This document shows, in pieces, positions 4,360-64,000 of a stretch of DNA of 64,000 nucleotides. The stretch's first letter is position 1; each line of letters opens with the position of its first letter. The position numbers and the translations under genes were made by a program. The stretch spans positions 1,154 to 65,153 of the forward strand of contig CAZJKT010000003.1 in the NCBI GenBank assembly GCA_964547015.1, in the 5' to 3' direction. The stretch comes from an uncultured archaeon (GTDB lineage: Archaea > Aenigmatarchaeota > Aenigmatarchaeia > QMZS01). The notes beneath the pieces are model-generated. The model was not told the origin of the DNA. It saw nothing but the letters and a program-made list of their open reading frames with translations, and did no database searches.

Positions 4360-5967
4360 CTACTTCCCGACACCCGCGCCCCCTACGAGATATCCCACAA
4401 GCACCGCATAAAAGTCGCCGCCTACTGTCGCAAGGTAGGGTGTTGCAATACGGTCCGCAAAGTTATGCTCATAGTTTCCCCTCACTCTGGAGAGGGCAAA
4501 GCCAAACTCAAAGAGGTTATCTATGAGGGCCCATTTTTTATTGAGGGAGGAGCTTATGTTTGCAAGAGCCATACCTCCCTTTTTGCCTTCCACCTCCTTC
4601 TTTTCTTCCTTCCACTTAGCAATAAGGTCTTCTATGTGCTTTTTTGCGGATATGCCGCCCGATGAGCTAATCCCAAGAATCTGATCCACATAGTCCTCAA
4701 ACTCTTTTTGGAGGGCCTTTAGGTGCAAGAGCAGGACGAGGAGTGCATTTTGGCTGTAAAACCACATCTTAAGGGAGTAAGTTACATCCTCCATTTCCGT
4801 GCCGTCAGGAAGCTTGATTACAACGCGGTTATGCTTGGTCCTCATAAGCACATAGTACATTCCGTCAGGCTTAAGCCAACCGCCATCATCGCAGATTTCA
4901 TTAACTTTTTCCTGCACCCAGGCCTCATCAATCCAGGGGTGTATCTTTTTGAGGCCGTCTTTTTCGTCAAAAATAAGTTTTTTCTTTATAAAATCATCAT
5001 AGGGGTCTGTTGAGAACTTTGTGTTTTTCCTCTTCTTATCCTGATTTTTCCCAAATTCCATGCTCCCTGTGCGGCCTACAATCCCCACCATCCCCTGCCA
5101 TGACCACAGTTCAGTGTCGTTTGATGAGACTGCCTGACCCATGGAGTGAAAAGCGGAAGAATATCTTGACATCCGCGCCCCGGGGGAGGACAGGGTGTCT
5201 TCAAAAAGCTTAAACTTTGCAATAGTTGGCTTTAGCCAGTTTCGGTACTCATCTATGCTTTTTTCCCTTGCGTTTATGAGGCTCTGCAAATTTTCGCACC
5301 GCTTCTCAACTTCTGCCCCAAAAAGATCGTTTTTCCAGTTCAAGTAAAGCCTCTGCTTTGTTGAAAGGACTACTGCCTCCGCTCCGGATACTTTCAAGCT
5401 GTCTCTGATTTTGTCAACCTTTACTTCTGACTTTGTGTCATCGCGGTCCCCTAATTTGATAAAGTCAGAAATCATTGTCGGCCACCTCACGACCATCTGC
5501 TTAATTGAATTTGCCCCGGTCGAAATATCCACCTCATCAATAAATATTGCTCTTAGGGAATGCTCATCATCAGTCTTAATCATCTTCAAAAATTCCTTAT
5601 ATTTGCGGAAATCATGGTTAAGAAGCTCAAAATCCGCAATTGCCTGAGACACCGAACCCATTCCCTGCTTTATTTTTCCTTCCAATTCATCCTTTTGCCT
5701 TTGGGTGAGGTTGTAATATCCCTGGTCCACAGGGGAAACATCAATTGTTTCATAGACTTTTTGCACTTCGTAGCCTTTGTTTCCTAAAAAGCTTGGGTAT
5801 CCCATGAATAAATTTGTCCCCTGGCCTTTTGGGAGGGTGAAATTAAATTCTTCATCCTGGCCTAAAGGGGCTACAGCAATTAAATGCCCTATATGTTTCA
5901 TACCCACACCACCTAAGTCTTCCAGCAGCTTAAATAAACTGTCGGTGTCGGATTGGGTTGCGGCCAT
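4360..5967 (-). CDS. Large hypothetical protein (535 aa) with a glycine-rich hydrophobic C-terminus
   Basis: Long ORF with no internal stops and good coding composition. I recognise no family motif. Co-directional with the upstream small membrane protein 6003-6353. Confidence 0.45.
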   Translation of the reverse strand: MAATQSDTDSLFKLLEDLGGVGMKHIGHLIAVAPLGQDEEFNFTLPKGQGTNLFMGYPSFLGNKGYEVQKVYETIDVSPVDQGYYNLTQRQKDELEGKIKQGMGSVSQAIADFELLNHDFRKYKEFLKMIKTDDEHSLRAIFIDEVDISTGANSIKQMVVRWPTMISDFIKLGDRDDTKSEVKVDKIRDSLKVSGAEAVVLSTKQRLYLNWKNDLFGAEVEKRCENLQSLINAREKSIDEYRNWLKPTIAKFKLFEDTLSSPGARMSRYSSAFHSMGQAVSSNDTELWSWQGMVGIVGRTGSMEFGKNQDKKRKNTKFSTDPYDDFIKKKLIFDEKDGLKKIHPWIDEAWVQEKVNEICDDGGWLKPDGMYYVLMRTKHNRVVIKLPDGTEMEDVTYSLKMWFYSQNALLVLLLHLKALQKEFEDYVDQILGISSSGGISAKKHIEDLIAKWKEEKKEVEGKKGGMALANISSSLNKKWALIDNLFEFGFALSRVRGNYEHNFADRIATPYLATVGGDFYAVLVGYLVGGAGVGK

Positions 5968-6002
5968 AAGTATAGTAGTTTAGCCTAAAATAAAACAAGG
6001 GC

Positions 6003-6353
6003 TTAAAATAAAAGCCAGTAAAGTCCAAGGAAGGTGGAAAAAAGCCCCAAAAAAGCCCCAAGAAGGGTAAATCCTTTAGGCTGCCAGTCACTGCCCGCAG
6101 GAAACTTCGTAACCATGAAAATTCCAAATAAGAACAGGAAAAGCCCCAAGAGCTTTTTAATGATAGTTGCCCATCCGATAAAATGGACCAGAAGCCATAG
6201 TGAAAGGGCAATTACTGCAAACGCAAAAATCATGAGGCCCCAAGCATGCTGGTCGCCCTTGGTTTTGTGCGAAGGGTAGCCCTGCCCGAAAAATATTTTT
6301 AGCAGGACGAAAAACGCAACTGCGAGGAGAAGCGCAAAAAGGATTTCAATCAT
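6003..6353 (-). CDS. Small polytopic membrane protein
   Basis: 116 aa with about four hydrophobic helices. Confidence 0.35.
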   Translation of the reverse strand: MIEILFALLLAVAFFVLLKIFFGQGYPSHKTKGDQHAWGLMIFAFAVIALSLWLLVHFIGWATIIKKLLGLFLFLFGIFMVTKFPAGSDWQPKGFTLLGAFLGLFSTFLGLYWLLF

Positions 6354-6457
6354 AATTAAATAACTTTAGGGATAATATATCTGCATACCTGAGCAAAGCG
6401 CATAGGGTTACAAGCAGGGATATTGTGGCGGAGAGGAAATACTATAGGCTGGGCGAA

Positions 6458-7984
6458 TTAAACCCCTTTCAGCCTCTCAATAACCCTTTCTTTGCCCAGA
6501 AGCTTGACCAAAATGCCAAACCTCGGACCCCTTTCTTTATCTATTAGGATTTTGTACAAGAGCCCAAAAATCTCTTTTGGAGGAAATCCTGAGGATTTTA
6601 TCAAGCTATAGGTTTCATTCAAAATTTCTTCCTCGTCCTCAAGCCCGGAAATCTTCTCGGCGATTGACATCAAAAGCGGGCGGTATTCCTCGTCGATTTC
6701 AGCCGGCGCCTCGTTAAACGAGATTTTGACTTCATCGGGAGCATATTTTTCAAGCCACATTTTCACTTTTTCAACCCTCAACTTGGCAAGCTCAAAGTCC
6801 GTTTCGTTTGGATACCCGCTCTTCTTATCTAAAAGTTCCTTAATTTTGCCTTCAAGCTTCTCCGGGGCGACAGTTTGGATAACGGAAACCAACTCCGAAA
6901 AAGGCAGCCTTACCGGGCACTTTTCAAAAGGTGTAATTCTGCTAAGTTCGTACCGCCGAATTGTTTCCTCATCAGCCTTTGCCTCCCCGTAAAACGCTTT
7001 CTCAGCGGCGTCAAAGCTGTCATAAATTCCGTAAATGTCCGTGTCGAAGGGCACGAAAATCGCCTTTTTGAGGCGCTGGGTGTACATAAACCTAATGGCT
7101 TCCGGCTCGAAAATCTCGAGAAGGTCGCTTATTGTGGCGATGTTTCCTTTGGATGAGGACATCTTCTCGGTCTGGCCTTTCAAGTAGATAAACTCATACA
7201 TCGGCCCAACGGGCGGCTCGTAGCAGAAAATCTCCTTAGAAACAATAACCGAAGTATCCCATGAGCCGCCGCTTGCCTTGTGGTCTTTTCCTGAGCTCTC
7301 AAAATCCACCCCAAAAAAAGCCCACCTGCTCGGCCAGTCAACCCTCCACTTTAATTTTACAATACCTGTCTTTCTAAAGTCGATTTTGTTTGAAAAGCCG
7401 CAGTCGCAGGAATATTCTATTTCATAACCGCCAAGGTATTTTGTGTAGGTAGAGTCCCTTTTGCATTTCTCGCAGTATAATTCAATCGGGAGCCAATCCT
7501 CAGCCAAATCCTCCTTTCGCCGCCTGTTTAGGATTTCCTTGATTAGCTCGGTTTTTTCAAGTGCGAGCTTCACGTTTTCCGCAAAAGTGCATTTCTCGTA
7601 AAGCTCGGTCGCCGAAAGATACTCCATCTCAATGCCTAAAATCTTCATTTCCGCCTCCATTTTCGCCTTGAAGTGGTTGGCATATGAGCTGTGGCAACCG
7701 AATGGGTCGGGAACCTTTGAGACGGGCTTACCTATGTGCTCCTCAAAGCTTTTGTCCACTCCTTTTGGCACCTTTCGGAACCTGTCAAAATCATCCCATA
7801 TATACTGGAAGCGAGACTTTTTGCCGAGCTTTTGGAGGGAGAGGTGGACGAAAAGCTGGGTCATGACTTCCCTTGCGTTCCCTATGTGGACGACGCCTGA
7901 AGGGGTTATCCCGCTCTCTACAACAAATTCATCCTTCTTTCGGGTTTTAGCGATTTCCTTCGCAAAATTGTCCGCCCAGTGCAT
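6458..7984 (-). CDS. lysK: Lysyl-tRNA synthetase, class I (archaeal type)
   Basis: HIGH-region variant HIGNAREV near the N-terminus and KMSSSKG (KMSKS motif). Overall length and arrangement fit class I LysRS. Confidence 0.9.
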   Translation of the reverse strand: MHWADNFAKEIAKTRKKDEFVVESGITPSGVVHIGNAREVMTQLFVHLSLQKLGKKSRFQYIWDDFDRFRKVPKGVDKSFEEHIGKPVSKVPDPFGCHSSYANHFKAKMEAEMKILGIEMEYLSATELYEKCTFAENVKLALEKTELIKEILNRRRKEDLAEDWLPIELYCEKCKRDSTYTKYLGGYEIEYSCDCGFSNKIDFRKTGIVKLKWRVDWPSRWAFFGVDFESSGKDHKASGGSWDTSVIVSKEIFCYEPPVGPMYEFIYLKGQTEKMSSSKGNIATISDLLEIFEPEAIRFMYTQRLKKAIFVPFDTDIYGIYDSFDAAEKAFYGEAKADEETIRRYELSRITPFEKCPVRLPFSELVSVIQTVAPEKLEGKIKELLDKKSGYPNETDFELAKLRVEKVKMWLEKYAPDEVKISFNEAPAEIDEEYRPLLMSIAEKISGLEDEEEILNETYSLIKSSGFPPKEIFGLLYKILIDKERGPRFGILVKLLGKERVIERLKGV

Positions 7985-8975: not shown

Positions 8976-9422
8976 ATGGCACAAAATCCAAGGGTTGGCG
9001 TAGGTGTGCTGATTCTAAAGGGTGGAAAGGTTCTTTTGGGGCGACGACACGAGGATCCAAAGAAAGCCGACAGCGAGCTTCACGGGGAAGGCACGTGGAC
9101 CTTGCCTGGCGGAAAAGTCGAATTTGGCGAAAAACTGGCAGAAACCTGCGTTCGGGAGGTTTTTGAGGAAACAGGGCTTAAGATTACTGAAAACGCCCTT
9201 GAATTGATTAATGTGTCCGACGATATCCTTCCGGATGCCCATTTTGTGACGGCAGGGTTTCTTTGTAGGGATTTTGAGGGCGAGCCAAAAGTTCTTGAGC
9301 CGGACGAAATCACGGAATGGAAGTGGTTTTCGATTGAGCGGCTTCCAAAGCCACTTTTTGGCCCAAGCAGAAAGCTCCTTGAGGCGTTTATCTCAAGAAG
9401 GGACAAATCAGAGCTCGTGTGA
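8976..9422 (+). CDS. NUDIX hydrolase
   Basis: Nudix box GGKVEFGEKLAETCVREVFEETGL (GX5EX7REUXEEXGU). Confidence 0.8.
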   Translation: MAQNPRVGVGVLILKGGKVLLGRRHEDPKKADSELHGEGTWTLPGGKVEFGEKLAETCVREVFEETGLKITENALELINVSDDILPDAHFVTAGFLCRDFEGEPKVLEPDEITEWKWFSIERLPKPLFGPSRKLLEAFISRRDKSELV

Positions 9423-29162: not shown

Positions 29163-29948
29163 TTGCAACATCCAAAATATTATTATATGGTGAATGGCTT
29201 TGATGTCCGAAACAACAGCGTTTATACTAAGGTGCTGGAGTATCGAAAAGACGGCTCTCCGGATGTAGTATTTATTTGCACAGCTCATATAGGGACAAGA
29301 ACATATTACAGAGAACTCGAACAGCGGGTAGATAGGATCAAGTATGGGATTTATGAGGGGGTTGGGATTCGTAGCAAGGAGGCTGACTTCTTCTATGAGA
29401 ATGTAGTATTCCCCCTCATTGCGGAAGAAGTTTACTGGCTGGGCTTGGTATATCAGTCAGACTTCCTGAAGGTAAATGAAACTTCGTGGATAAACCCTGA
29501 TGCTTATGTGGAAGATTCTACCGTTCCCGAGTGGCGGGCTAAAATGGAGGGCTTATTGAGGTTTGGAACCGAGCATAAGGTATTCAGCCGGCTTGCTCAC
29601 GGGTCGCGGGAAAAAATCATGGAGATGCACAGAAAGAATCTCCTATGGGAGCTTGAACTCTATTTCTTTGAGCCATCATTGATGCGGGGCTGGCAGGAGA
29701 ATACACCAACGCTCGACTACCGAAATGAATTACTAGCTTCATATTTGGAGGAGCTAATACAAAGTGGCGTATCCAGGAAAATTGGCGTTGTATACGGGGC
29801 GGGGCACCTCAAAGCAGTTCATCCTTTTCTGGAAGGGCTTGGCTACAGGCTGGGGAAGTGCGAGGAGATAAAGGCCTTTGGGCTTTATGACCCGATAGAG
29901 GGCGGGATTTCGCAAATTCGGAACCCTAAAAAACGGTATCAAAAATAA
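29163..29948 (+). CDS. Hypothetical protein, possibly TraB/GumN-family
   Basis: VVFICTAHIG resembles the GTAHV signature of TraB-family proteins. Weak evidence. Confidence 0.35.
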   Translation: MQHPKYYYMVNGFDVRNNSVYTKVLEYRKDGSPDVVFICTAHIGTRTYYRELEQRVDRIKYGIYEGVGIRSKEADFFYENVVFPLIAEEVYWLGLVYQSDFLKVNETSWINPDAYVEDSTVPEWRAKMEGLLRFGTEHKVFSRLAHGSREKIMEMHRKNLLWELELYFFEPSLMRGWQENTPTLDYRNELLASYLEELIQSGVSRKIGVVYGAGHLKAVHPFLEGLGYRLGKCEEIKAFGLYDPIEGGISQIRNPKKRYQK

Positions 29949-30471: not shown

Positions 30472-31569
30472 ATGGCTTCACCGATTGATATTAAAAAAGG
30501 CAATATCATTAGCTTCCTTGAGGAAACAAAGCCCTTGGTTGACGAGGTAATCCTTAATTACCTTCCAAGAAAAGTAGGAAAAGAGTGGATGGAATGTGTT
30601 TTTGGAAAACCGAGGTATGAGTACAGCATTGATTCTGCCCAAAAGGCGCTTGTTGACCCAATGTGGGACCTTCTGGATCGAGGGGGGAAGAGGTGGCGCC
30701 CTGTTCTCTTCTTGCTGATAGTCGAAGCTGTCGGGGGCGATAAAGAGAAGGTGAAAGATATCGTGATAATACCCGAAATTGTGCATAACGGGACTCTGAT
30801 GGTTGATGATATTGAGGATATGGGTGAATTAAGGCGAGGCAAGCCCTGTATCCATAAGATATATGGTGTGGATGTGGCGATAAATGCCGGAAACTTCATG
30901 TATTTTTTCCCCCTGCTCGCCCTTGAGAAAAACAGGCATAAGTTCAAGCCGGAAACACTAAACAAGGCATACAAGATATATGTTCAGGAAATGCTAAATG
31001 TGAGTTTAGGCCAGGCAACAGATATTAACTGGCATAAAGGAAATGCGGATAATATAAGAGAAGAGGAGTACCTTCAGATGTGCGCCTATAAGACAGGGTG
31101 CCTCTCAAGGATGTCTGCAAAGCTTGCCGCCGCCCTCTCTGAATGCGATGATGAGCTCATAGAAAAGCTTGGGCGGGTTGCTGAAGCCATAGGAGTTGCA
31201 TTCCAGATTCAGGATGACATTTTAGATATATCATTAAGCGAAGAAGACAGGGCAGGATTTGGAAAGCCTTTTGGAAATGATATTAAGGAAGGCAAAAGGA
31301 CGCTCCTGGTTATCCAAACACTTAAGGAAGCAAATGAATCTGACAGAAATAGGCTTATTCAGATATTAGGAAAGCATACAGACGACCTTGAGGAGAGGCG
31401 TGAGGCAATCGAAATTATTGAGAAGTACGGGTCAATTGAATATGCCGCAAACAGGGCCCGCCAAATAGTAAAGGAGGCCTGGGAAGAAACCGATGATTTG
31501 CTTAAGGAAAGCCCCGCAAAAGACAAATTAAAAGAATTTGTGAGCTACCTGATTGAAAGGAAGGTTTAG
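30472..31569 (+). CDS. Geranylgeranyl diphosphate synthase (trans-isoprenyl diphosphate synthase) with an N-terminal extension of about 60 aa
   Basis: First Asp-rich motif LMVDDIEDM and second FQIQDDILD, with the overall polyprenyl synthase layout. Confidence 0.85.
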   Translation: MASPIDIKKGNIISFLEETKPLVDEVILNYLPRKVGKEWMECVFGKPRYEYSIDSAQKALVDPMWDLLDRGGKRWRPVLFLLIVEAVGGDKEKVKDIVIIPEIVHNGTLMVDDIEDMGELRRGKPCIHKIYGVDVAINAGNFMYFFPLLALEKNRHKFKPETLNKAYKIYVQEMLNVSLGQATDINWHKGNADNIREEEYLQMCAYKTGCLSRMSAKLAAALSECDDELIEKLGRVAEAIGVAFQIQDDILDISLSEEDRAGFGKPFGNDIKEGKRTLLVIQTLKEANESDRNRLIQILGKHTDDLEERREAIEIIEKYGSIEYAANRARQIVKEAWEETDDLLKESPAKDKLKEFVSYLIERKV

Positions 31570-31598: not shown

Positions 31599-32864
31599 TT
31601 AATTGCCAAGCCGGCATTTAATCTCACAAACCGGAGGAATTTCCCTTTTGTGCCTATTCAGCGAGATTCTCTCAAAAATATAGTTCACTTTTTTTTTGGG
31701 CAGGAGCGTAAGCTCTGTAATTTCCCCTGAAGGAAAGCCCTGTTCTCGAAGCTTAAGAATAGTGTCAATTTGGCTATAATTTAGGCCAAGCTCGCCTTCA
31801 TCAGTCTGGCCTTCCCATAGCCCTGCGCTCGGCTCACTTTTAATTATCTCTTCAGGCAAATTCAGCCTTTTTGCCATCTCAATAATTTCGGTTTTGTAGA
31901 TACCCGCCAAAGGCTCCACATCCGCGCCGCCATCCCCGTATTTTGTAAAATAGCCAATCTCAAATTCGCTCTTATTTGTTGTCCCCAATACCAATAGGCC
32001 TTCCTTATTTGCGTAATAATAGAGCGCCGCCATCCGAAGCCTTGACTGCAGATTTCCCTTTGAGCGCTTATCTGCATCAGGCAGAGATTCCAGAAAGGAA
32101 CTATAGGCAGGACCGAGCGAAATTTTCTGCGCTTCGTGCCTATCTCTTATTTGCTTGAGGTTTGGGCTTTCATCAGACTCTACAGGCAAGCTTAAAAATA
32201 CGGCCCTCCTGCCAAGCGCCTTTTTTGCAAGCTCTGCCGCAACCGAAGAATCAATCCCTCCGCTTAGGCCCAATACCGCCCCCTTTGATTGGGTTTTGGA
32301 TACCGACTGCCGGATAAATTCAATTACCCTCTCCTCAGGCAATTTTCCGGATTCCTTTATTATCTCAAGACCCCGGTTTGCCTTAAGCCATGACTCCACC
32401 TTTTTAGGCACAAGCTTTTCCCACCTAAGGCCCTCTCTTATCCTCCCCCTGACTAGCGTGGAGGATACCTCTCCGTAAAGCTCATTTTCAATTGTTTGCG
32501 CCCCTATGGCATCCAGGCATTTTTTGGTCCAGGGGTTTCTTGTGTAGACGCAGATTTTCTTCTTTCCAAACAGCTCTTTAACTTTTTGCGCCCACTTAAT
32601 GTCGTCATAGAAATCAGGGACACCCTGTATTGCATAGCCCCATATCCCTTCAAAAGCCAAGGCTGACTCAATCATCTCCTTTCTCTGGGCAAAAGTGAAG
32701 GGATTTTTATCTGAGCAGAATTCCTGCATAGACCCTATAATTATTGTAAAGCTTCCTTTCTTAGAGATATCTTTTATAACATCCAGATGCCCTTTATGAA
32801 AAGGCTGGAAACGCCCAATAAAGACCGGATGCGCCCCTTCTTCTCTTTGTACTGCTTTGCCCAT
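31599..32864 (-). CDS. Bifunctional fusion: N-terminal archaeal nicotinamide-nucleotide adenylyltransferase (NadM) joined to a C-terminal NH3-dependent NAD+ synthetase (NadE)
   Basis: N-terminal GRFQPFHKGH, NPFT, SSTLVR and WEKLVP match archaeal NMNAT (MJ0541-like). The C-terminal PP-loop LGLSGGIDSS and LGTTNKSEFEIGYFTKYGDGGADVEPL match NadE. Confidence 0.8.
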   Translation of the reverse strand: MGKAVQREEGAHPVFIGRFQPFHKGHLDVIKDISKKGSFTIIIGSMQEFCSDKNPFTFAQRKEMIESALAFEGIWGYAIQGVPDFYDDIKWAQKVKELFGKKKICVYTRNPWTKKCLDAIGAQTIENELYGEVSSTLVRGRIREGLRWEKLVPKKVESWLKANRGLEIIKESGKLPEERVIEFIRQSVSKTQSKGAVLGLSGGIDSSVAAELAKKALGRRAVFLSLPVESDESPNLKQIRDRHEAQKISLGPAYSSFLESLPDADKRSKGNLQSRLRMAALYYYANKEGLLVLGTTNKSEFEIGYFTKYGDGGADVEPLAGIYKTEIIEMAKRLNLPEEIIKSEPSAGLWEGQTDEGELGLNYSQIDTILKLREQGFPSGEITELTLLPKKKVNYIFERISLNRHKREIPPVCEIKCRLGN

Positions 32865-32918
32865 AAATATATTATAACTTAATTTGGTTTCACAGCCTGT
32901 TTTTTGGGCTGATTAGCG

Positions 32919-32947
32919 GATAATGCCTATAATGCCTATAATGCCTA
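32919..32947. repeat. Short tandem repeat, three copies of ATAATGCCT
   Basis: ataatgcctataatgcctataatgcct sits in the divergent intergenic region between the nadM-nadE fusion and the rhomboid gene. Confidence 0.6.
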
Positions 32948-33081
32948 TTATAGAGACCCTATACACCTTTAAGCCGTCTAACCCTTAAATAGTGGATATA
33001 TGAACATATTCTGCAAAAACCCTCCCGGAATTTTAATCACACCTAGTTTAAGCGGGATAAGTATCCTCGAAGTAAATAATT

Positions 33082-33741
33082 ATGGCAAGGATATGCGCCA
33101 CGACCGTTATTGTAGCTCTATGCGTAATAATAAGCATAATCGGATGGGTGGGGGATACTGAGGATATATTCTCCGGATTTGGCTATTCAACAGAGAATAT
33201 GTTTTCAGGCAAGATTTATGTCCTTATTACCTCAGTTTTTCTTCATGCAAATGCCGCCCATCTTTTCTCAAATATATTTGTGCTCCTGATTTTTGGGCTT
33301 GTGCTTGAGCAGGAGATTAGGTGCAAAAAGTTTCTGATGCTTTTTTTCGGCGGGGCTTTTCTGGGCGCTTTGTTGTCCTCCCTTTTTTATTCATATTCCC
33401 AAATCGCAATCGGGGCATCAGGCGGAGTATTTGCAATAGTTGCCGCAACCATGCTCATTAAGCCTGTGCCGATGGATTATTATGTTCCGATACCTTTAGG
33501 GGTCATTGCAATCGGCTATATATTCTATGCAATAGCGGGCCTGATATTTAATTATCCGCCCCATGTCGCCCATATTGCGCATTTAGGCGGGGCTCTTGCA
33601 GGGCTTATTTTCGGATGCCGAAAGCAAGGGCTCAAAAGCACACTAAGGATTATAATGGCGGTAACTATTCTTCTTTTGTTTGTGCCGGTTATTTGGAATT
33701 TTTGGGCGCTTATAATGGACTTGCTTTTGGGCATTTTCTAA
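33082..33741 (+). CDS. Rhomboid-family intramembrane serine protease
   Basis: Catalytic GASGGVFA (GxSG) and the downstream AHLGG histidine, with six TM segments. Confidence 0.85.
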   Translation: MARICATTVIVALCVIISIIGWVGDTEDIFSGFGYSTENMFSGKIYVLITSVFLHANAAHLFSNIFVLLIFGLVLEQEIRCKKFLMLFFGGAFLGALLSSLFYSYSQIAIGASGGVFAIVAATMLIKPVPMDYYVPIPLGVIAIGYIFYAIAGLIFNYPPHVAHIAHLGGALAGLIFGCRKQGLKSTLRIIMAVTILLLFVPVIWNFWALIMDLLLGIF

Positions 33742-50019: not shown

Positions 50020-50874
50020 TCAGAAGCCCAAAACATCATCTCTTGGCCCTTTATGCTCTTTTTGAGGCTCTTTTTCCTCGCCGGTTTTTGTCGGCTCTTC
50101 AGGCTTATTTTTGGGGATTTCTCGGCTCTCTTGAGGGATTTTTTGGAATTCGGTGGAGGAGGCACTCTCTAATTTTTTGGGCAGCCGCTCATCTATTGGA
50201 GTATCTATATCAGCCTTTTCTTGCGAACCCATTTTTTGGCTTTCTCCTGTCATGACGGACCCCTGATTATTATTTCTCAGTTCTTCCTGAGTTTCTCCCT
50301 TTGGCTCTTCCCCCAAGTCTTCCCTTATAATCTCCCTTGGCTCTTCTTTCACACCCTTACTTGGCTCTTCCATTACACTATCTCTTACTTCTTCCCTTGG
50401 TTTCCCCTCCATATCTTCCTCTTCCTCTTCTTTTTCTAATTCCCTCCTCTCGGGCCTTTTTATCCCCACACCAGTCCTTTCACTCGAAAAGGGCAAATGG
50501 ACTTCTTTTCCCGAAATGCTCAGCATTGTTTCTCCACTTTCCCCTTTTTTTGAGAGGATCCTAATTTTTCCAAAAACCCTGAGATTTAATATAAGGCTGT
50601 TTGCTACAAAGTTTTTTATTCGGCTTGCCCTTCCGTTCATATAGCAGTATATTTCGACGGCAGGCCTGCCTTCAAATTCCGAGATTATGCCCTGAAGCAG
50701 AGCATCTCCCCCGTCAAGAATCTGCTCTGAAGTCTCAACAGCTTTTATTTGCCCAAAACCATGAATCATGCCCGAATTTATCCCATAAGCTTCAAGAAGG
50801 CTTTGCAGGTCATTGGAGTTTTCATTGTCGGAAAGCTTAAGAAAAATGTGGTCGCCCTCTCGCGCGGATATCAT
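50020..50874 (-). CDS. Hypothetical protein with a highly acidic E/K-rich low-complexity C-terminal half
   Basis: A structured N-terminal domain of about 140 aa, followed by EEPxxE-type repeats. Confidence 0.4.
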   Translation of the reverse strand: MISAREGDHIFLKLSDNENSNDLQSLLEAYGINSGMIHGFGQIKAVETSEQILDGGDALLQGIISEFEGRPAVEIYCYMNGRASRIKNFVANSLILNLRVFGKIRILSKKGESGETMLSISGKEVHLPFSSERTGVGIKRPERRELEKEEEEEDMEGKPREEVRDSVMEEPSKGVKEEPREIIREDLGEEPKGETQEELRNNNQGSVMTGESQKMGSQEKADIDTPIDERLPKKLESASSTEFQKIPQESREIPKNKPEEPTKTGEEKEPQKEHKGPRDDVLGF

Positions 50875-50917
50875 AACTAATAGAACTTATAAAATACCTA
50901 TAATCTGCATCACTATT

Positions 50918-51325
50918 ATGGAAGACCTAAGCCCTATACGAAAGGCAGGGGCCTTAATTTTCTCGGACAAAAAGATGCTTGTTGTCCGCCCCAAAGGAAA
51001 GCCCTTTTTCCTAAGCCCCGGCGGAAAGTATGAGGATGGCGAAGATGCTGAAATGTGCCTTAAAAGGGAGCTTTTTGAAGAGCTTTGCGTGGAGCTGAAG
51101 TCATTTCAGCGCTATAAGGTATTTGAAATAAAAAAGGCGGCGACAAGCAACCGACCGCTCCTCCTTGAGCTATACTTTGCAGAAATTTCCGGAGAGCTCA
51201 AGCCCTCGTCTGAAATAGAAGACCTTGCCTGGATTTCAAGGCAGGATTTTGAGTCTGAAAAATTCATCCTTGCGCCGTCTTTTTATGAAGTGATTCCCTG
51301 CCTTATTGAGGAGGGGCTGATTTAA
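50918..51325 (+). CDS. NUDIX hydrolase
   Basis: Nudix box GGKYEDGEDAEMCLKRELFEELCV. Start taken at the internal Met MEDLSPIRK (ATG at 50918). Confidence 0.8.
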   Translation: MEDLSPIRKAGALIFSDKKMLVVRPKGKPFFLSPGGKYEDGEDAEMCLKRELFEELCVELKSFQRYKVFEIKKAATSNRPLLLELYFAEISGELKPSSEIEDLAWISRQDFESEKFILAPSFYEVIPCLIEEGLI

Positions 51326-56596: not shown

Positions 56597-59500
56597 TTAG
56601 CTTACTCCAACTTTCTCAAACAAACGAGATAGGTAATCCCTATCGCTGGTCAAATAGATTCCCCGACTCTCCGGGTCATTTAGAATATCTTGACTTAATT
56701 GCTCCTTGGGTGTTTGAGAGACAATAAAGGAGTATAGCTCAAAAGCCTCATCTGGATGCTTCTCCCTTAGATTACGCTCAATTGCCTTGACATATTTGTG
56801 GAAATTAATTTTTTCCCAATCCACATGGTTAAGACCCTTGGGATCAATAAAAATAATCTTTTGTTTCGTGTCTTCCAGTATCCACAAAATGAAGTCCGGG
56901 TAGAAGAGTTCAGTCTCAAGATAATAACCATAGCCGATTCCCTCATGATTTCTGAGAAGAACCACCTTTCGACCACCAATATCCTTTCTTTCCAGAAATA
57001 TCCTCAAGGCATCAATAAACGATTTTTCGCCGTCATTTAGTCCAGCAGGATGAAAGGTGTAGCTTGCAGTCCCCCCCTCCTGTGCCACAAGAAGAGGATA
57101 ATAAGCGTGCTTGTCAAATCTGACACAAAGCTTATTCAGAGCATTTTTAGAGCCAGGCGTATCCTCCAAAACGGTCTGAATATCGTCAAAATCTATTATT
57201 CTGGACTTGGTTTTGAGAACTGCCTCCAAAACACCTCTTATTCGTTCATCTACGCTTCCTTTAATCGCGCCTTTCTCGTCGGTAAATATCTTCATCTGAC
57301 AGGTAGTTGGGACTTTGGACTCAGAAAGCTTTGCAAGAGACATTCTCTTCTCATAGTATCGCCGCAAGGCAAGAGAGTAATTTTTGTTCATTGCTTTCGT
57401 TATGACCTCAAGGTATGCTCTCTCCAATAGGGTCCTGGCAACAGAAATATCTTTTCTAGCATTAAGATATGCCATATCCCCATAGACAGATACCATTGCG
57501 TCGTTCGAAACCAAGTAGTTTTTTAGTTCTTCGGCGGAGCAAAGAGAAAGATTTTGATAGTTCTTGACACGTTTGTGTCGCCTCAACTCGGTGAGAAGTC
57601 TTTCCCAGTCAACTAAATCCAAATATTCTTCAGTAAAGATTGGGCAGGATTCGGGGCGGGTTTTTGGAATGTCCTTAGAATCAGAAGTCTTGCTATTCAT
57701 CGCAGTTATGTGGGGATTAAGATCCAGCCTTATTTCTGTCGCAAATGGGAGCATAGATACCAATTCCGTTCGTCGGAAACTGCCCTCCACATCCCTCTCA
57801 CGCTCAATACAAAGTAGGTCACTAAACTTAACCGAATCAGGCATTCTCAGGTGGATATTTATCTCCTTTTCAACGTAGAATTCAATGTCTTCTGCAAGCT
57901 CCTCTCTAAATGCCTCCATATAGCTGGCATCTATCCCAAAAACATTAAGGGTTTCAAGAAGGGGGAGGTATTTTTTCAGCTCCCCACTAATCGGGCGGAG
58001 GTCTTTTGAACTGCGCTTCATGCTGTTCTTGTAGCCGTGGATGCGAACGCCTCGCCCAAACAGCTGTATGGCCGAAACTCCCCGGGTTTTCGCAAAATTC
58101 ATCAAAAGCATAGAAGAAATTCGGTAATTGTCCCAGCCCTCTATGAATTTCTTTGCACCGATAAGGACATTCACGGGTTGCTCTTTGGGTGTACTCAGTG
58201 CCTTAAATTGTGACTTTGAAATAGAATTTGTGCGTTGCCGTACAGTATTCAGTTCTTTGTTTGCAGTCTCCTTCGCTTTCTTTAGGATTTTCTTGTCATT
58301 TCCCTTTCCTACATAAATCAGCCCAAAATAGGTAGCATCCGAGTCCCCATATTTAAGCCCGATTTCGCCGTCAGAATCATGAATGTCTTCCATCACAAGA
58401 AGCGAGTCATTGTAACCGGAGTAAAAGACCGTTTTGAACAAATCATCAAAAAGCGCTTTGGTGTCGTTCTTAAAGGTATTTTGAAGAAGTTCTCTCAAAT
58501 AGGGGAAATGATCCTGGAAGAGCGGGTTTCCCCGCTCATCCTTAAGAGGCAAATTTCCAGAAACCAAAAAATTCTCAATCGCCTTGAGGTAATGCTCCTT
58601 TTTCAGCTTCAGGCGGTTAAGGAATACCACAAATTTGAAGATGTCTGAGCTTATTTTTTCGTCCAGATTGTCCTTATCACTCTCCACTACTCTCGACCCC
58701 ACAAGAATCCAGAGCGGGTTTTCGATAAGGTGGGTAGTTTCTGCTTCCCTGCGATTTTCGAGGAAAAGCTTTTTTTGCTGATAAAATGAGAGTAGATTGC
58801 CGAGCATTATGTTTTTCTCGTACTCGTCTTGCTTGCCCACATTTGAGATGAAATAATCCTTGCCATAGCCCTCCTTGTGGTAATATTTGTAGGAATAGTC
58901 AAAAAGGATGGTTTTCTTGTAATCTTTGGCTTCCTTTTTTTTCCCCACATCCCTGAATGTAGCGCTGTACTCCATCGTAAAGCCTTCCTTTGCAACCTTA
59001 GAGCGCATTTTAAGCCAGGCGTTTCCGCTTGCGCCCCTATGTCCCTCATCCACCAAAATCAGGTTTTTATCGCCAAAGGCGCGATAACTGATCGTTTTGT
59101 CCTTTGTAGTTTCGGACAGCTTGTTAATGTCAATAATTTTTATCGCCTTTCTGACAAAATTGTCCTTTTTTGCCATTATTGCCCTAAAACCCGACTTTTC
59201 AAATTCCTTTAGGTGCTGGCGTGACAAATCTTCGTTAGGGGTTATTAGGATAATGTTGTTTATCTCCTGGCGGTATTTCTCGGCGTAGTGCAGGTATTGG
59301 TGGATGTTTATATGCATCACAAGGGTTTTTCCTGAACCCGTTGCCATCCAGTAGCACAGTTTTTCTAGGTCGTCCTGGAGGTAATCATCAATATCTGTGT
59401 ATTTTTCCGGGATGTTGTTTTTTCCCTGATTCAGAAATTCGATAAACTCCCCAAGCTCCTGCTCTTCCTTCTTTTGGAAGTACAAATCGAGGTAAATTTC

Positions 59501-59833
59501 GGTTATAAGGAGAGCGGCATACTGAAACACCTTAAACACGATTTCCCTCTTGCCGTTGATTTTGTCGATATGGTCTTTGATATTGAGGTCATATTCCCTC
59601 AGTTTTGCTTCATCAAGGATATTATAGGGGTAAGGCACATTTATCGCCCCAAAATAGTCCAAAATCGCCTTCATGAAGTTGCTCTGGTCGGACTCGAATT
59701 TGTACTCAAAATCCGCCTTTTCCTTTAGAAAGTCGATAAATTTGCAGGTATCGTCAAAACCCAGGCACCTTGGCAGAATCTTTGGAAGGACCAAAGACGC
59801 GCTCAAATTCTCATTAATCTCCTTTTTTACCAT
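56597..59833 (-). CDS. Res-like restriction enzyme subunit: SF2 helicase/ATPase with a putative C-terminal PD-(D/E)xK nuclease (Type III Res-like), 1078 aa
   Basis: Helicase motif I WMATGSGKTLVMH, motif II ILVDEGHRGASG and motif VI QLFGRGVRIHG. The C-terminal FYPDFILWI...KIIFIDPKG is consistent with a PD...(D/E)xK nuclease. The start overlaps the upstream methyltransferase stop by 7 nt. Confidence 0.7.
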   Translation of the reverse strand: MVKKEINENLSASLVLPKILPRCLGFDDTCKFIDFLKEKADFEYKFESDQSNFMKAILDYFGAINVPYPYNILDEAKLREYDLNIKDHIDKINGKREIVFKVFQYAALLITEIYLDLYFQKKEEQELGEFIEFLNQGKNNIPEKYTDIDDYLQDDLEKLCYWMATGSGKTLVMHINIHQYLHYAEKYRQEINNIILITPNEDLSRQHLKEFEKSGFRAIMAKKDNFVRKAIKIIDINKLSETTKDKTISYRAFGDKNLILVDEGHRGASGNAWLKMRSKVAKEGFTMEYSATFRDVGKKKEAKDYKKTILFDYSYKYYHKEGYGKDYFISNVGKQDEYEKNIMLGNLLSFYQQKKLFLENRREAETTHLIENPLWILVGSRVVESDKDNLDEKISSDIFKFVVFLNRLKLKKEHYLKAIENFLVSGNLPLKDERGNPLFQDHFPYLRELLQNTFKNDTKALFDDLFKTVFYSGYNDSLLVMEDIHDSDGEIGLKYGDSDATYFGLIYVGKGNDKKILKKAKETANKELNTVRQRTNSISKSQFKALSTPKEQPVNVLIGAKKFIEGWDNYRISSMLLMNFAKTRGVSAIQLFGRGVRIHGYKNSMKRSSKDLRPISGELKKYLPLLETLNVFGIDASYMEAFREELAEDIEFYVEKEINIHLRMPDSVKFSDLLCIERERDVEGSFRRTELVSMLPFATEIRLDLNPHITAMNSKTSDSKDIPKTRPESCPIFTEEYLDLVDWERLLTELRRHKRVKNYQNLSLCSAEELKNYLVSNDAMVSVYGDMAYLNARKDISVARTLLERAYLEVITKAMNKNYSLALRRYYEKRMSLAKLSESKVPTTCQMKIFTDEKGAIKGSVDERIRGVLEAVLKTKSRIIDFDDIQTVLEDTPGSKNALNKLCVRFDKHAYYPLLVAQEGGTASYTFHPAGLNDGEKSFIDALRIFLERKDIGGRKVVLLRNHEGIGYGYYLETELFYPDFILWILEDTKQKIIFIDPKGLNHVDWEKINFHKYVKAIERNLREKHPDEAFELYSFIVSQTPKEQLSQDILNDPESRGIYLTSDRDYLSRLFEKVGVS

Positions 59834-62796
59834 AAGCGCTTCCTCATTTCATCATAGATGTTACGGTAATTTTGTGAAACGAGACTGTCGCAGCTTATGA
59901 AAACTTCCTTGTATTTATCTTCCAGGAGCTTGTCCATGAATTTGCCGGCGGCTTTCTTTTCCTCGTCGTCCCTGCACGGAGGTCTCCAGATCGCTATGGC
60001 TTTTTCGCCTTTGTACCTGCCCTTTACGACAAAATATTCAGCGCCGTTGTCCTCCAGTTTCTCCATTTTGTCCACATCAAGCCCCATCAGGTAAATAAAT
60101 GTCTCGATTAAGTCCACGGTTTTTTCTGTTGTGGCACCGTCAATTTTCAGGTCAGAACCGCCCGACTCGTTCAAAACCTTGATTTTTAAATCAAGGTGCT
60201 TGTCCTCAGTGTCCACTCCAAGGAAATTCCCGGATTTGCCCTTGTCTATGCCATTTTGGAGCATGTATTTCAAAACATCGCCCTTTTGGTCGTAGAATCG
60301 GTTCAAATCCATCTGTTTGAAGACCACATTTTCAAGGGCGTCCTCGTACTGTTCCATTTCGTGGTACTTGAAAAAGCCGCCAATTGAATCCATATCCTGC
60401 GGCTTGCCGTCCTTCCAGTTTAGGGAGTAGAGCACTTTCTTTATCCTTGGATTGAGGACGGTATGAAAATAATCGCCCATTTCGACAAGGATGAATTTTC
60501 TCTTTCCTTTGTCCTCCTTGTTTAGAGAGATTACTGCATGTCCGGTTGTTCCTGAACCTGCGAAGAAATCCAGATTCACAGAGGCATCATTCATTGTCGC
60601 ACCAATCAATTGCTCATACAACGAAACGGGATGGCAATATGGAAAAAATAAATCCATACCATCTAAAAAATATTTACCACTTTTTGCATCTTTAATCACA
60701 GACGAAAGTTGTCGCTTTGAGTCAGAATCAAGATATACTTTTTTTTGTGGCTGAGTAGAATGATCTTCACCCCACAGGATTTCATCGTCATCTATCATCT
60801 TTTTCAGAGTTTCGGGTGTGCGAGACCAGCCATTGGTTGGGATAGGACAAGGTTTTTTTGTTTTGGGATGTATCAAAGGTATGTGGAATTTTGGGTCGGA
60901 CCTATATTCGGGGGCACCCATAGCAACTCCACGAAAAACTCTGCCATCATCTTCAAGAAGTCTATATGCTTTCTCACCTCCCGTGAGATCTGTTTGAGAA
61001 ATTATCCACCTTGAAAATTCTCTCCGTGAATCATCATTAACTCCACCCGAAAGCTCGATAAACCGCTTTGCATGCTCAATAATACTCAATACGGCACTAT
61101 TACGCATATAGACAGGTCCACTAAATTTGGAACGCCAAAGAATGTACTCGTGTTGCGTAGCGATTCCTTGTCTACCTAACATGGGATTCTTTTTATCCCA
61201 AATTATTGTTCCTCTACTAGGTAAACCAAATCTATCCAACATTACAAATAAAACCTCATATTCATTTTCATCGATATGACATTGAAAGACACCCTCCAAT
61301 GATAAAACCTTGGCAGACGATTCTACACACTGAGACATAAGAGATAGCCAACTTGAATGCCTGTAGTTGTTTTTATAAAGAAAACCACTAGTTTCAGTAT
61401 TATATGGAGGATCAATGTGTATGCAAGTTACCCTTTCTCTGTACTTCTCCTGCAAGAGATTGAGCGCCTGCCAGTTCTCGGAATGAATCAAAATCCCGTC
61501 AAGTTTCTCGTCAAGCCCCTCGATTTGCCCCAAAATCCTCCATTTGAAGCTATTTGAGAAGTTTTTAGTGTCAAGGGGCAGTTTTCTCCACTTGCCGTTT
61601 ATTTTAAGGTCGTCTTTGCCCTTGACCTCAATCCCAAAAAGGGCTTTCCACTCGGAAATCTGGGTCTTATTTGACAAGATTTCCGGAACAATTTCCTCCA
61701 AGAAATTTTCCCCGCAAAACTCTGAAATCTTGTCCAGAGTGATTACATAGTGGCTCTCCAAAATGAATTTCTTCTTCTCCCAGACTTTTTTCTTGAGATT
61801 CTCCAAAGCGTCGAGCTTCTCGATTATATTCTTCGAGACATCCTTGAAGACTTTTGCGACGATTTTGCGGTTCTCGCTAAAATTGCCCTTATCGTCAATA
61901 TAATCGTCCACATGCACGACTTCCTGATTTAAGTAAAAATTGAGTTGCCCTCTCAAAAACCCGCCCAGATTCTTGTGGATAAAATAATCCTCCTTGTACT
62001 TTCTCTGGAATTTGTTCAAAATGCCCTCCAGGCCCTCAATTTCGCCAACGGTCTCCAAAATCTTTGAAATCGCCTGCAAATTGAGGGCTTTTTGAATTTC
62101 TGCCTGATTCTTGCCAAGCTCCTTAAGCTCGTCTGTGACAAAAACCCGCTCAAAATTCACCTTAAGTTCGCCGTCATCCTCAATCGGGTTCTCCTCAGAA
62201 AGCATAAAACAGGTCATTCCTCCCTTCTGGTTTCCCTTTTTCTCCTCGACCTTGACCACCCGCAAAAGCACCGTGCGCCCGTTTGCCTCGAAACTGAAGC
62301 GGGAGTATCGCTCAGAAGTCTTAATATAATACATATCCTTTGTCACCCAGTGCAAATCTACCTCAGAGCCGTCATAAGGGATGAGATAAGTGCCCTCTTT
62401 GAAATAAAACTGCGAGATAAAATCGCCGTCCTGATAATACCTTGAAAAGAAATTTACAAGGTGCTTGTAAATCTCATCAGTAATATCGCCAATTGTGCCA
62501 ATTTCTTTCTTCTTTGCCAGCAAATCCTGGTATTTTTTAGAGTCCTCCAAAGAAACGCCGGCTTCGGTAAGGGTTTTTCTAAGCTCAGAAAGCTCTTTTT
62601 CAATGTCCTCGCCAAACTCCTTCCTGATATTGAGAATCCCGGTTTTCACAAGCACGGAAAGCTCCTTTTCGACAAATGCGTCGATTTCCTCATTTTTCTG
62701 CTTCATCAGGCGATAGACCCCAAAATCAAGGTCTTTATCGTCAGACCGAAACATTTCTCTTAACTGCTTTTTCAAACGGTTAAATGATTCATCCAT
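59827..62796 (-). CDS. Beta-class N6-adenine DNA methyltransferase (Type III Mod-like) with an N-terminal domain of about 450 aa of unknown function
   Basis: Motif IV CIHIDPPYNTE precedes motif I DFFAGSGTTGHAV (beta-class permutation). The ORF track starts at 62892. I prefer the internal Met (MDESFNRLKK, about 62796), which abuts the stop of the upstream gene. Confidence 0.7.
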   Translation of the reverse strand: MDESFNRLKKQLREMFRSDDKDLDFGVYRLMKQKNEEIDAFVEKELSVLVKTGILNIRKEFGEDIEKELSELRKTLTEAGVSLEDSKKYQDLLAKKKEIGTIGDITDEIYKHLVNFFSRYYQDGDFISQFYFKEGTYLIPYDGSEVDLHWVTKDMYYIKTSERYSRFSFEANGRTVLLRVVKVEEKKGNQKGGMTCFMLSEENPIEDDGELKVNFERVFVTDELKELGKNQAEIQKALNLQAISKILETVGEIEGLEGILNKFQRKYKEDYFIHKNLGGFLRGQLNFYLNQEVVHVDDYIDDKGNFSENRKIVAKVFKDVSKNIIEKLDALENLKKKVWEKKKFILESHYVITLDKISEFCGENFLEEIVPEILSNKTQISEWKALFGIEVKGKDDLKINGKWRKLPLDTKNFSNSFKWRILGQIEGLDEKLDGILIHSENWQALNLLQEKYRERVTCIHIDPPYNTETSGFLYKNNYRHSSWLSLMSQCVESSAKVLSLEGVFQCHIDENEYEVLFVMLDRFGLPSRGTIIWDKKNPMLGRQGIATQHEYILWRSKFSGPVYMRNSAVLSIIEHAKRFIELSGGVNDDSRREFSRWIISQTDLTGGEKAYRLLEDDGRVFRGVAMGAPEYRSDPKFHIPLIHPKTKKPCPIPTNGWSRTPETLKKMIDDDEILWGEDHSTQPQKKVYLDSDSKRQLSSVIKDAKSGKYFLDGMDLFFPYCHPVSLYEQLIGATMNDASVNLDFFAGSGTTGHAVISLNKEDKGKRKFILVEMGDYFHTVLNPRIKKVLYSLNWKDGKPQDMDSIGGFFKYHEMEQYEDALENVVFKQMDLNRFYDQKGDVLKYMLQNGIDKGKSGNFLGVDTEDKHLDLKIKVLNESGGSDLKIDGATTEKTVDLIETFIYLMGLDVDKMEKLEDNGAEYFVVKGRYKGEKAIAIWRPPCRDDEEKKAAGKFMDKLLEDKYKEVFISCDSLVSQNYRNIYDEMRKRLW

Positions 62797-62797
62797 T

Positions 62798-64000
62798 CTA
62801 AATTGCCCTCTTGAAGTGCTTGCACATAAATCTATATGGGCAATTTTTACAAAAAAGCTTTCCTTTTCCGGTTCCGCAATATTTTTCGCCAATTACCGCC
62901 TCAGAAAACTCATTCAGGACCCTCTTTGCTTCAGAACCGTCTTCAACAGGAAATTCTGCGTCCGAAAGCCGGAATTTTTCCTCCTCAATTGGATAGGCCA
63001 CAGCCCGATCCACCTTTTGCCCGTCCTTTCGCAGGGCGTTGGCATAGAACTTAAGCTGAAGGTCCACATGGGTCTCAGATATGGCTTTGAGCTTTCTTGC
63101 CTTGAAATCCATCAAAACTACCTCGCCGGCCTTATTCTCAAAGAGAAAGTCAGTCCGACCCCGAATCCTTATTCCTTCCATCATCACACTTACTGGGGAC
63201 TCAATCGAAATCACGTGCCCAAGCTCCTTTCCCATGAAATCATTATACCTATCCAGGCTTCTTCGGATTTTGTGGCGAAAAATCTCATTATTCTTGCCAA
63301 GATCCACCCAGGATTCATCCAGAATTGCCTCCAGTCTCTGACCGTCAACACAAGAACCTCTACCCATATCCACATTTAGCTTGGCTAAAGCGTTATGGTA
63401 TATTCTGCCAACTTTTTGCTGGAAAATCTCCTCCGCTTTGAAACCATACACATAGTTTATCTTGAAACGCTCTGGGCAGTCAACAAAAGTCGAAATAGCC
63501 GAAAAATCGACCAGCTTTATCCCCGGCTTTTCTTCGGGTTTCGGGCTGATTTCCACATTCGCCAATCTATCCTCGCTAAAGTCTGAAATGTGCCCGTCAA
63601 AATCAGAGATAAATTCTGAGGGGTTTGAAGTTTTCCCGCTATCATAAGCATCAAAATGGGTTAAAAAGAGTGCATCCCTGGCTCTGGTAATCGCAACATA
63701 AAAAAGGTTCTCCTCCTCTTTTAGGGGTGAATATTTCTCATAGAGATAAAACTTCTCAGGTATATTTATCAATTCAGAAGGGAGTTTCGATTTCGGTATA
63801 CGCCTCTTAGTAAGAGAGGGAACAATTACTACCGGAAATTCAAGCCCTTTTGCCTGATGAATATTCATCAAGTACAGTGAATGATTGTCCAGAACCTCAA
63901 AGCCGTCCGCCTTTTTATTAATATTGAGGTTTTCTGGAAAAGCACTCAAAAGCCTCAAAAACATCAAAAAATCGCCATTGCCATACACGAAGACAAAATC
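62798..64000 (-). CDS. C-terminal part of an SF1 UvrD/PcrA-like helicase fused to a Cas4/AddB-type Fe-S PD-(D/E)xK nuclease domain. The N-terminus lies beyond the window end.
   Basis: UvrD C-terminal motifs IHQAKGLEFPVVIVPSL and VAITRARDAL. The nuclease motif GRTDFLFENKAGEVVLMDFK. A four-Cys cluster, DCPERF ... CGTGKGKLFCKNCPYRFMC, typical of the RecB-family Fe-S nucleases. The frame stays open to position 64000. Confidence 0.7.
   Translation of the reverse strand, partial: DFVFVYGNGDFLMFLRLLSAFPENLNINKKADGFEVLDNHSLYLMNIHQAKGLEFPVVIVPSLTKRRIPKSKLPSELINIPEKFYLYEKYSPLKEEENLFYVAITRARDALFLTHFDAYDSGKTSNPSEFISDFDGHISDFSEDRLANVEISPKPEEKPGIKLVDFSAISTFVDCPERFKINYVYGFKAEEIFQQKVGRIYHNALAKLNVDMGRGSCVDGQRLEAILDESWVDLGKNNEIFRHKIRRSLDRYNDFMGKELGHVISIESPVSVMMEGIRIRGRTDFLFENKAGEVVLMDFKARKLKAISETHVDLQLKFYANALRKDGQKVDRAVAYPIEEEKFRLSDAEFPVEDGSEAKRVLNEFSEAVIGEKYCGTGKGKLFCKNCPYRFMCKHFKRAI

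Follow-up and report, generated by a model that had tools for sequence, protein, structure and literature searches.

A rare NadM-NadE fusion protein encoded on an Aenigmatarchaeota contig, predicted to join the last two steps of NAD synthesis

The essential synthesis of nicotinamide adenine dinucleotide (NAD) normally ends in two steps that are catalyzed by separate proteins; the fusions known in the pathway are NadM-Nudix, NadR and NadE-glutaminase. On contig CAZJKT010000003.1, from an uncultured member of the archaeal lineage Aenigmatarchaeota (the 64-kb stretch of it analyzed here is termed the window), we identified a gene for a 421-residue polypeptide in which an archaeal-type nicotinamide mononucleotide/nicotinate mononucleotide (NMN/NaMN) adenylyltransferase (NMNAT) domain of the NadM type is fused to the N-terminus of an NH3-dependent NAD synthetase (NadE) domain. 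This NadM-NadE combination is a real, rare and conserved fusion, undescribed in the literature searched, of two ordinary and well-known enzyme families, one half of it being divergent. The protein probably acts as a bifunctional enzyme that takes NaMN via nicotinate adenine dinucleotide (NaAD) to NAD on one polypeptide, i.e. in the canonical order. The coordinates of the gene, its domains and motifs, and its neighbours are collected in Table 1.

Domain architecture and reality of the fusion

A Pfam scan of the 421-residue protein recovers PF01467 (E 1.3e-12) in the N-terminal part and PF02540 in the C-terminal part, and no other model above cut-off: PF02568 and PF00733 stay below theirs, and the same scan detected neither a CN-hydrolase (glutaminase) nor a Nudix domain (PF00293). 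The original prediction had proposed just this union of NadM and NadE in one polypeptide, and the motifs quoted in its favour are all present: GRFQPFHKGH (residues 17-26), NPFT (54-57), SSTLVR (134-139) and WEKLVP (148-153) in the NadM half, and SGGIDSS (201-207), GTTNKSE (294-300) and YGDGGAD (309-315) in the NadE half.

The C-terminal half matches NadE models and structures along its entire length. PF02540 aligns at residues 179-410 over profile positions 4-242 of 242 (E 1.1e-71, 241 bits against a cut-off of 21), the NAD+ synthase equivalog NF010587 scores 261.9 bits at residues 177-416, over its cut-off of 255, and TIGR00552 is passed with 234.4 bits against 63.65. The solved NadE of P. 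horikoshii (2e18) is 45% identical to this half (E 2.2e-53 to 8e-53, 184 bits); these matches bear out the NadE assignment made earlier. Methanocaldococcus NadE aligns end to end with 43% identity, the C-terminal HKR motif included, and in Foldseek searches the NadE half of an AlphaFold2 model superimposes on solved NadE with target TM-scores of 0.83-0.87. A glutamine-dependent NadE was ruled out as an identity for this half, since there is no glutaminase domain; the corresponding models, NF010588 and NF002730, lie far below their NCBIfam cut-offs.

Active-site residues of the NadE half were mapped through an alignment to the B. subtilis enzyme (1ee1), in which we take D50, E162, F167-K170, D173, K186, N133, R137, Y144 and H257-K258 to constitute the Mg/ATP and NaAD site. 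D50, E162, D173 and K186 fall on D205, E300, D311 and K324 of the fusion, F167-F168-T169-K170 on Y305-F306-T307-K308, N133, R137 and Y144 on N271, R275 and Y282, and H257-K258 on H405-K406. All the mapped positions are at least 91% conserved in the fusion family of 47 clusters described below, and most are invariant. S201, G202, G203, D205 and S206 of the PP-loop are retained in 47/47 members, as are R275, Y282, E300, T307, K308 and K324, with D311 and K406 each kept in 46 and H405 in 44 of the 47.

The N-terminal half aligns with archaeal NMNATs: residues 15-170 match positions 5-161 of the M. jannaschii enzyme (MJ0541, 1f9a; E 4.6e-20 to 1.6e-19, 38% identity), and residues 14-171 match positions 7-168, near the whole length, of that of M. 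thermoautotrophicum (Mth; 1ej2, E 5e-15, 32-33% identity). A profile of the fusion family matches 1f9a with E 2.6e-35, and the NadM half of the AlphaFold2 model superimposes on 4yp5 with a target TM-score of 0.87 and a root-mean-square deviation of 2.0. The NCBIfam model for archaeal NMNAT, TIGR01527, spans residues 14-171 with 88.4 bits, short of its cut-off of 181.2, and NF002243 attains 95.1 bits against 127. As it falls under both cut-offs, this half is better termed a NadM-type domain, i.e. a divergent member of the family rather than an equivalog. The archaeal NMNAT match that had been called very close is therefore clear and full-length, but the closeness itself does not hold up against these identities and scores. 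Other cytidylyltransferase-like identities for this half were rejected, because full-length alignment is confined to the NMNAT models: with phosphopantetheine adenylyltransferase, FAD synthetase, NadD and NadR either only the first ~60 residues match or the scores are 20-38 bits. The NadM-Nudix models (PRK05379) cover only residues ~13-98, with 36-58 bits against cut-offs of 354-449.

Within the NadM half, the segment G17-R18-F-Q-P-F-H23-K-G-H26 aligns with G10-R11...H16-R-G-H19 of the Mth enzyme, placing R18 (R11 in Mth) just upstream of the HxGH motif, and S134-S-T-L-V-R139 aligns with S131-G-T-E-V-R136. The catalytic residues R18, H23, H26, S45, D84, W91 and R139, equivalent to Mth R11, H16, H19, S39, D80, W87 and R136 (some of which are targeted in the PDB mutant entries 1m8f, 1m8g, 1m8j and 1m8k), are invariant in 47/47 members; T136 is found in 44/47, and variably E, D, N or K stands where the Mth enzyme has R47. 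All the catalytic residues that could be mapped are hence invariant, or nearly so, in both halves, and both activities are predicted by homology.

The two domains adjoin with little between them. The alignment with MJ0541 stops at residue 170 and that with P. horikoshii NadE starts at residue 178, leaving about 7 residues and thus no flexible linker. In the AlphaFold2 model, which was built on the 47-member alignment (mean pLDDT 90.7, pTM 0.88), the junction is formed by helices at residues 165-172 and 176-191 with pLDDT 93-97. The stretch from residue 160 to 195 is of equal length in 41/47 members; E177 and I180 are kept in over 90% of them and F183 is invariant. Foldseek and a sequence search of solved structures found no PDB chain spanning both halves: the best query TM-score for the whole model is 0.53, and PDB chains cover at most about half of it.

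The window is probably metagenome-derived, its proteins recurring on metagenome contigs, and this could favour an artefact in which a sequencing frameshift or an assembly chimera merged two neighbouring genes; a frameshift splitting the gene in two was also the outcome under which the predicted fusion was to fall. However, the frame is continuous, the longest homopolymer in the junction DNA is no more than 4 nt, and the identical 421-residue protein is present on 24 contigs drawn from NCBI, JGI, ENA and Logan (32 collection blocks indexed). Moreover, the same layout is common to 47 divergent clusters, with the junction length, the conserved E177, I180 and F183, and the confidently modelled helix noted above. 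Frameshift and chimera are ruled out on these grounds, the probability left to an artefact is negligible, and the fusion is genuine.

Table 1. Features of the fusion gene and its immediate surroundings (coordinates in the window)
Feature	Coordinates	Strand	Basis or remark
Complete nadM-nadE fusion gene	31599..32864	-	single ATG-to-stop frame, 421 residues, two domains
Archaeal-type NMN/NaMN adenylyltransferase (NadM) domain, residues ~12-172	32349..32831	-	TIGR01527, 1f9a, Foldseek
HxGH nucleotidyltransferase motif, H23-K-G-H26	32787..32798	-	Mth NMNAT H16/H19; alignment
SxTxxR motif, S134-S-T-L-V-R139	32448..32465	-	alignment with Mth S131-G-T-E-V-R136
Domain junction, residues 165-191	32292..32372	-	AlphaFold2 model, alignment; last NMNAT helix runs almost directly into first NadE helix
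NH3-dependent NAD synthetase (NadE) domain, residues ~177-416	31617..32336	-	PF02540, NF010587, 2e18, Foldseek
PP-loop ATP pyrophosphatase motif, S201-G-G-I-D-S206	32247..32264	-	read from sequence
Geranylgeranyl pyrophosphate (GGPP) synthase	30472-31569	+	convergent downstream neighbour of fusion gene
Divergent intergenic region, 217 bp	32865..33081	.	upstream of fusion gene, shared with rhomboid gene; presumed promoter
Rhomboid protease	33082-33741	+	divergent neighbour upstream of fusion gene

Size, origin and distribution of the fusion family

Protein searches recovered 47 full-length clusters with the PF01467 plus PF02540 layout, comprising 188 member sequences of 407-438 residues and 42-51% identical to the window protein, along with partial members, among them P0011, P0036 and P0049. 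The same search returned more than 7,700 matches to single-domain NadE against these 47 clusters; at 50% clustering only about three fusion representatives remain, and a scan of genome contigs with one fusion protein as query yielded only one further fusion locus. The architecture is thus rare, as had been surmised from the unfamiliarity of the combination: besides the lack of a spanning PDB chain, no NCBIfam model covering NadM and NadE together was found, nor any description of the fusion in the full-text literature searched (InterPro and UniProt architecture tables lay outside the scope of that search). The second outcome that was to refute the prediction, a widespread and already known architecture, has thus not come about.

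Across the family, the identity between two members in their N-terminal halves correlates with that in their C-terminal halves (Pearson r = 0.75). In a neighbour-joining tree with the 68 closest single-domain NadEs, all 47 fused NadE halves fall into a single clade, which holds one further sequence, labelled 'partial'. A neighbour-joining tree of the NMNAT half has a corresponding clade of 54, including seven short sequences that may be fragments or close stand-alone relatives. The correlation and the clades together suggest that a single fusion event lies behind the family, which is likely rather than proven because the trees carry no support values. With midpoint rooting, the window protein forms the deepest branch of the fusion clade. 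Its closest relative, P0011 (57% identity), is labelled Aenigmatarchaeota and is N-terminally truncated with the junction included; a stand-alone NadE of 240 residues (P0055) also occurs in Aenigmatarchaeota.

Four fusion members are unmistakably located in bacterial contexts: P0050 (locus L009) with a bacterial 16S rRNA and a two-component system, P0025 (L007) with a sigma-70 factor and MacB/FtsX, P0007 (L010) with ParAB, NAD-dependent LigA, HU, RNase Y and MraY, and P0010 (L011) with MreB, GatCA, LepA and Fmt. The source labels of the family include Paceibacterota and Minisyncoccales, which are lineages of the candidate phyla radiation (CPR)/Patescibacteria. These contexts and labels point to a fusion common to Aenigmatarchaeota (DPANN) and CPR-like bacteria, the CPR part being taken from the source labels. 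Proteins of the P0050 cluster (L009, positions 5332-6895) bear the NCBI label 'Candidatus Pacearchaeota archaeon', while the labels of other members of the cluster read Paceibacterota or Minisyncoccales. A full-length bacterial 16S rRNA (1291 bits) on the contig makes it probable that the archaeal label is a taxonomic error.

More distant relatives show further architectures. P0154 is a fusion with a strongly weakened NadE half (51 bits), P0207 has a Nudix domain N-terminal to NadM, P0227 has NadM followed by a DHH phosphoesterase domain, and P0163 and P0177 contain tandem cytidylyltransferase-like domains.

Predicted reaction course and its alternatives

In the favoured, canonical course, the NadM domain would use ATP to convert NaMN to NaAD and, like archaeal NadM enzymes, would probably also take NMN directly to NAD. 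The NadE domain would then employ a second ATP, via its PP-loop, to adenylate the nicotinate carboxylate of NaAD, upon which free ammonia would yield NAD. In a genome that is very small, the single rigid polypeptide would guarantee 1:1 expression of the two activities and might hold the intermediate, NaAD, close by; any channelling is a conjecture drawn from the rigid junction of the model. We infer both activities, the order of the reactions and ammonia as the nitrogen donor. The canonical order is favoured because the NadE half has its closest matches among archaeal NadEs, and the M. jannaschii representative, MJ1352, is a strict NH3-dependent NaAD amidase without NMN synthetase activity (De Ingeniis et al. 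2012, PMC3376133). Archaeal NadM has been reported to be bifunctional, accepting both NMN and NaMN (PMC3376133).

Several observations weigh against this proposal. The NMNAT half, scoring below both curated NCBIfam cut-offs, is by sequence a divergent member of its family. Residue D88 (codon 32601-32603), an Asp in 42/47 members, occupies the position of the nicotinamide-pocket Asn84 of the Mth enzyme, also an Asn in MJ0541, and the exchange could shift the preference between NMN and NaMN. A source of NaMN (nadA/B/C, pncB) was not found in the Pfam annotation, which covers most of the 64-kb window. Finally, the F. tularensis NMN synthetase (3fiu) is also a good match to the NadE half (E 2.6e-41).

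The last of these matches bears on a Francisella-like course of reversed order, in which the NadE half would amidate NaMN to NMN and the NadM half would convert NMN to NAD. NadM-type enzymes use NMN well, and the F. tularensis NadE homologue and NadM act in this manner (PMC3376133); among solved structures, 3fiu ranks second or third for the NadE half (145 bits, 36% identity), and D88 would plausibly favour a carboxamide over a carboxylate. Yet the NadE half is nearer to archaeal NadE, both in its score with the P. horikoshii enzyme and in its full-length identity with that of Methanocaldococcus, and MJ1352, as said, lacks the NMN synthetase activity on which such a course depends (PMC3376133). 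Furthermore, the match to 3fiu extends no further than residue 218 of 249, while the C-terminal HK motif has its aligned counterpart in the archaeal enzymes. We hence consider the reversed order quite unlikely. In Francisella NadE*, the bulky residues Y27, Q133 and R236 reportedly close the adenylate pocket and set the preference for NaMN; at the first two of these positions the window protein has T191 and N286 (A/S/T and N across the family) and Methanocaldococcus NadE has Ala and Asn, R236 lying beyond the end of the 3fiu alignment.

A further alternative is that one half has lost catalysis and serves in ligand sensing, regulation or scaffolding, e.g. an NAD- or ATP-binding NMNAT fold that regulates the NAD synthetase. 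The sub-threshold scores of the NMNAT half would agree with this, and the much-weakened NadE half of P0154 indicates that decay of a half does occur among the relatives. Against it, all the catalytic residues checked, in one half as in the other, are invariant in the 47 members despite identities of only 42-51%, a pattern that speaks for selection on catalysis and not just on binding, and we regard such a loss in the window protein as very improbable.

Beyond the bifunctional enzyme of canonical order, a more far-reaching picture may be offered, tentatively and with considerable doubt: the fusion could be a dedicated one-gene 'NaMN to NAD' module of single origin that has moved between CPR-like bacteria of ultrasmall size and DPANN archaea, with the rigid junction building a defined higher-order assembly (e.g. 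NMNAT hexamer cores linked by NadE dimers) and with direct hand-over of NaAD between the active sites.

The function of the fusion is predictable; its interest is modest and lies mainly in its DPANN/CPR-like distribution and in an annotation gap. The sources name the fusion proteins only 'NAD(+) synthase', and metabolic reconstructions of these lineages may as a result count the adenylyltransferase step as absent. The presence of the fusion in bacterial and archaeal genomes makes it a further candidate for genes shared by CPR-like bacteria and DPANN archaea, and it may serve to mark the ways in which symbionts with reduced genomes retain cofactor synthesis. It also presents a natural test case for NaAD channelling and, as a natural single-chain NaMN-to-NAD enzyme, a compact part for the engineering of NAD or NMN pathways.

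Genomic context and comparison with known NAD-pathway enzymes

The window carries a set of archaeal genes (RpoN, Rpb4, L21e, tRNA-intron endonuclease, diphthamide synthase, Pus10 and class-I LysRS), and proteins named Candidatus Aenigmarchaeota/Aenigmatarchaeota match its SecY with 66-70% identity. The fusion gene looks monocistronic, as its downstream neighbour is convergent. The intergenic region shared with the divergent rhomboid gene is presumed to be the promoter region; an A/T-rich TATA-like sequence lies within ~25 nt of the fusion-gene ATG, and a perfect 9-bp tandem repeat, ATAATGCCT in 3.2 copies (32920-32948, ~55-85 nt upstream of the ATG), is a possible binding site for a regulator. 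tRNA and Rfam scans of the window gave no match, so that no riboswitch is indicated upstream of the gene. The GC content of the fusion gene is 42-48% and that of its neighbours 38-47%; a recent foreign insertion, considered on the basis of composition, finds no GC signal.

The neighbours of the fusion gene differ between the window and all five homologue contexts, and there is no conserved NAD-pathway neighbourhood: other NAD-pathway genes were found neither in the Pfam annotation of most of the 64-kb window nor beside the five homologues. No further genes of possible relevance to NAD were seen in the window besides two small stand-alone NUDIX hydrolase genes, at 8976-9422 (+; E 2.6e-25) and 50813-51325 (+; E 1.2e-12). 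Two genes downstream of nadM-nadE, at 29163-29948 (+), lies an open reading frame of 261 residues to which Pfam gave no match (the contig gene call gives 253 residues).

Comparison with another Aenigmarchaeota contig (L012; GCA_016932615.1, JAFGCN010000027.1), the SecY of which is 70% identical, shows that the surrounding gene order is kept: FKBP, methyltransferase, DUF8173, L15, SecY, thioredoxin, RpoN, L13 and S9, and also the pair of HAD and ferredoxin genes. The block of rhomboid, NadM-NadE and GGPP synthase genes is absent from the corresponding position there. At the far end of the window, 56597-63988 (-), beside RtcB, are a ResIII/SNF2 helicase (1078 residues) and an N6/N4 DNA methylase (1021 residues), together with a UvrD_C plus PD-(D/E)XK/Cas4-like nuclease. 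In the corresponding place, locus L006 (3654-5958), which shares an identical 286-residue diphthamide-synthase protein and the same neighbouring genes with the window, has an NgoPII-type restriction enzyme, a C5 methylase and Vsr instead; the region looks like a strain-variable restriction-modification island.

Among known systems, the N-terminal half shares its fold, full-length alignment, HxGH and SxTxxR motifs, and the equivalents of all of R11, H16, H19, S39, D80, W87 and R136 with archaeal NadM (MJ0541, 1f9a; Mth, 1ej2/1hyb). It differs in that those enzymes are stand-alone proteins of ~170 residues, whereas the NadM half, 32-38% identical to them, has a C-terminal helix that runs on into NadE; moreover, it mostly has Asp in place of N84 and a variable residue in place of R47. 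The C-terminal half is 43-45% identical to the archaeal single-domain NadEs (PH0182, 2e18; MJ1352), with which it has the PP-loop, the FTKYGDGG block and the C-terminal HK motif in common, and these likewise lack a glutaminase; the fusion adds an N-terminal NMNAT domain of ~175 residues. In the NadE fusions that are known, the partner is a nitrilase-like glutaminase (type F) and not the preceding enzyme of the pathway (PMC3376133). The NadM-Nudix proteins of Synechocystis (2qjo) and F. tularensis (2qjt), matched with E 1e-12 to 2e-8, also combine an N-terminal NadM-type domain with a second NAD-related domain, but their partner is a Nudix hydrolase of NAD turnover or salvage, whereas that in the fusion is a PP-loop amidotransferase. 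The nearest functional parallel is provided by NadE* (3fiu) and NadM of F. tularensis, where the same two enzyme families jointly turn NaMN into NAD; there, however, they are encoded by two separate genes and act in reversed order, while the NadE half of the fusion is closer to the archaeal NaAD-specific enzymes.

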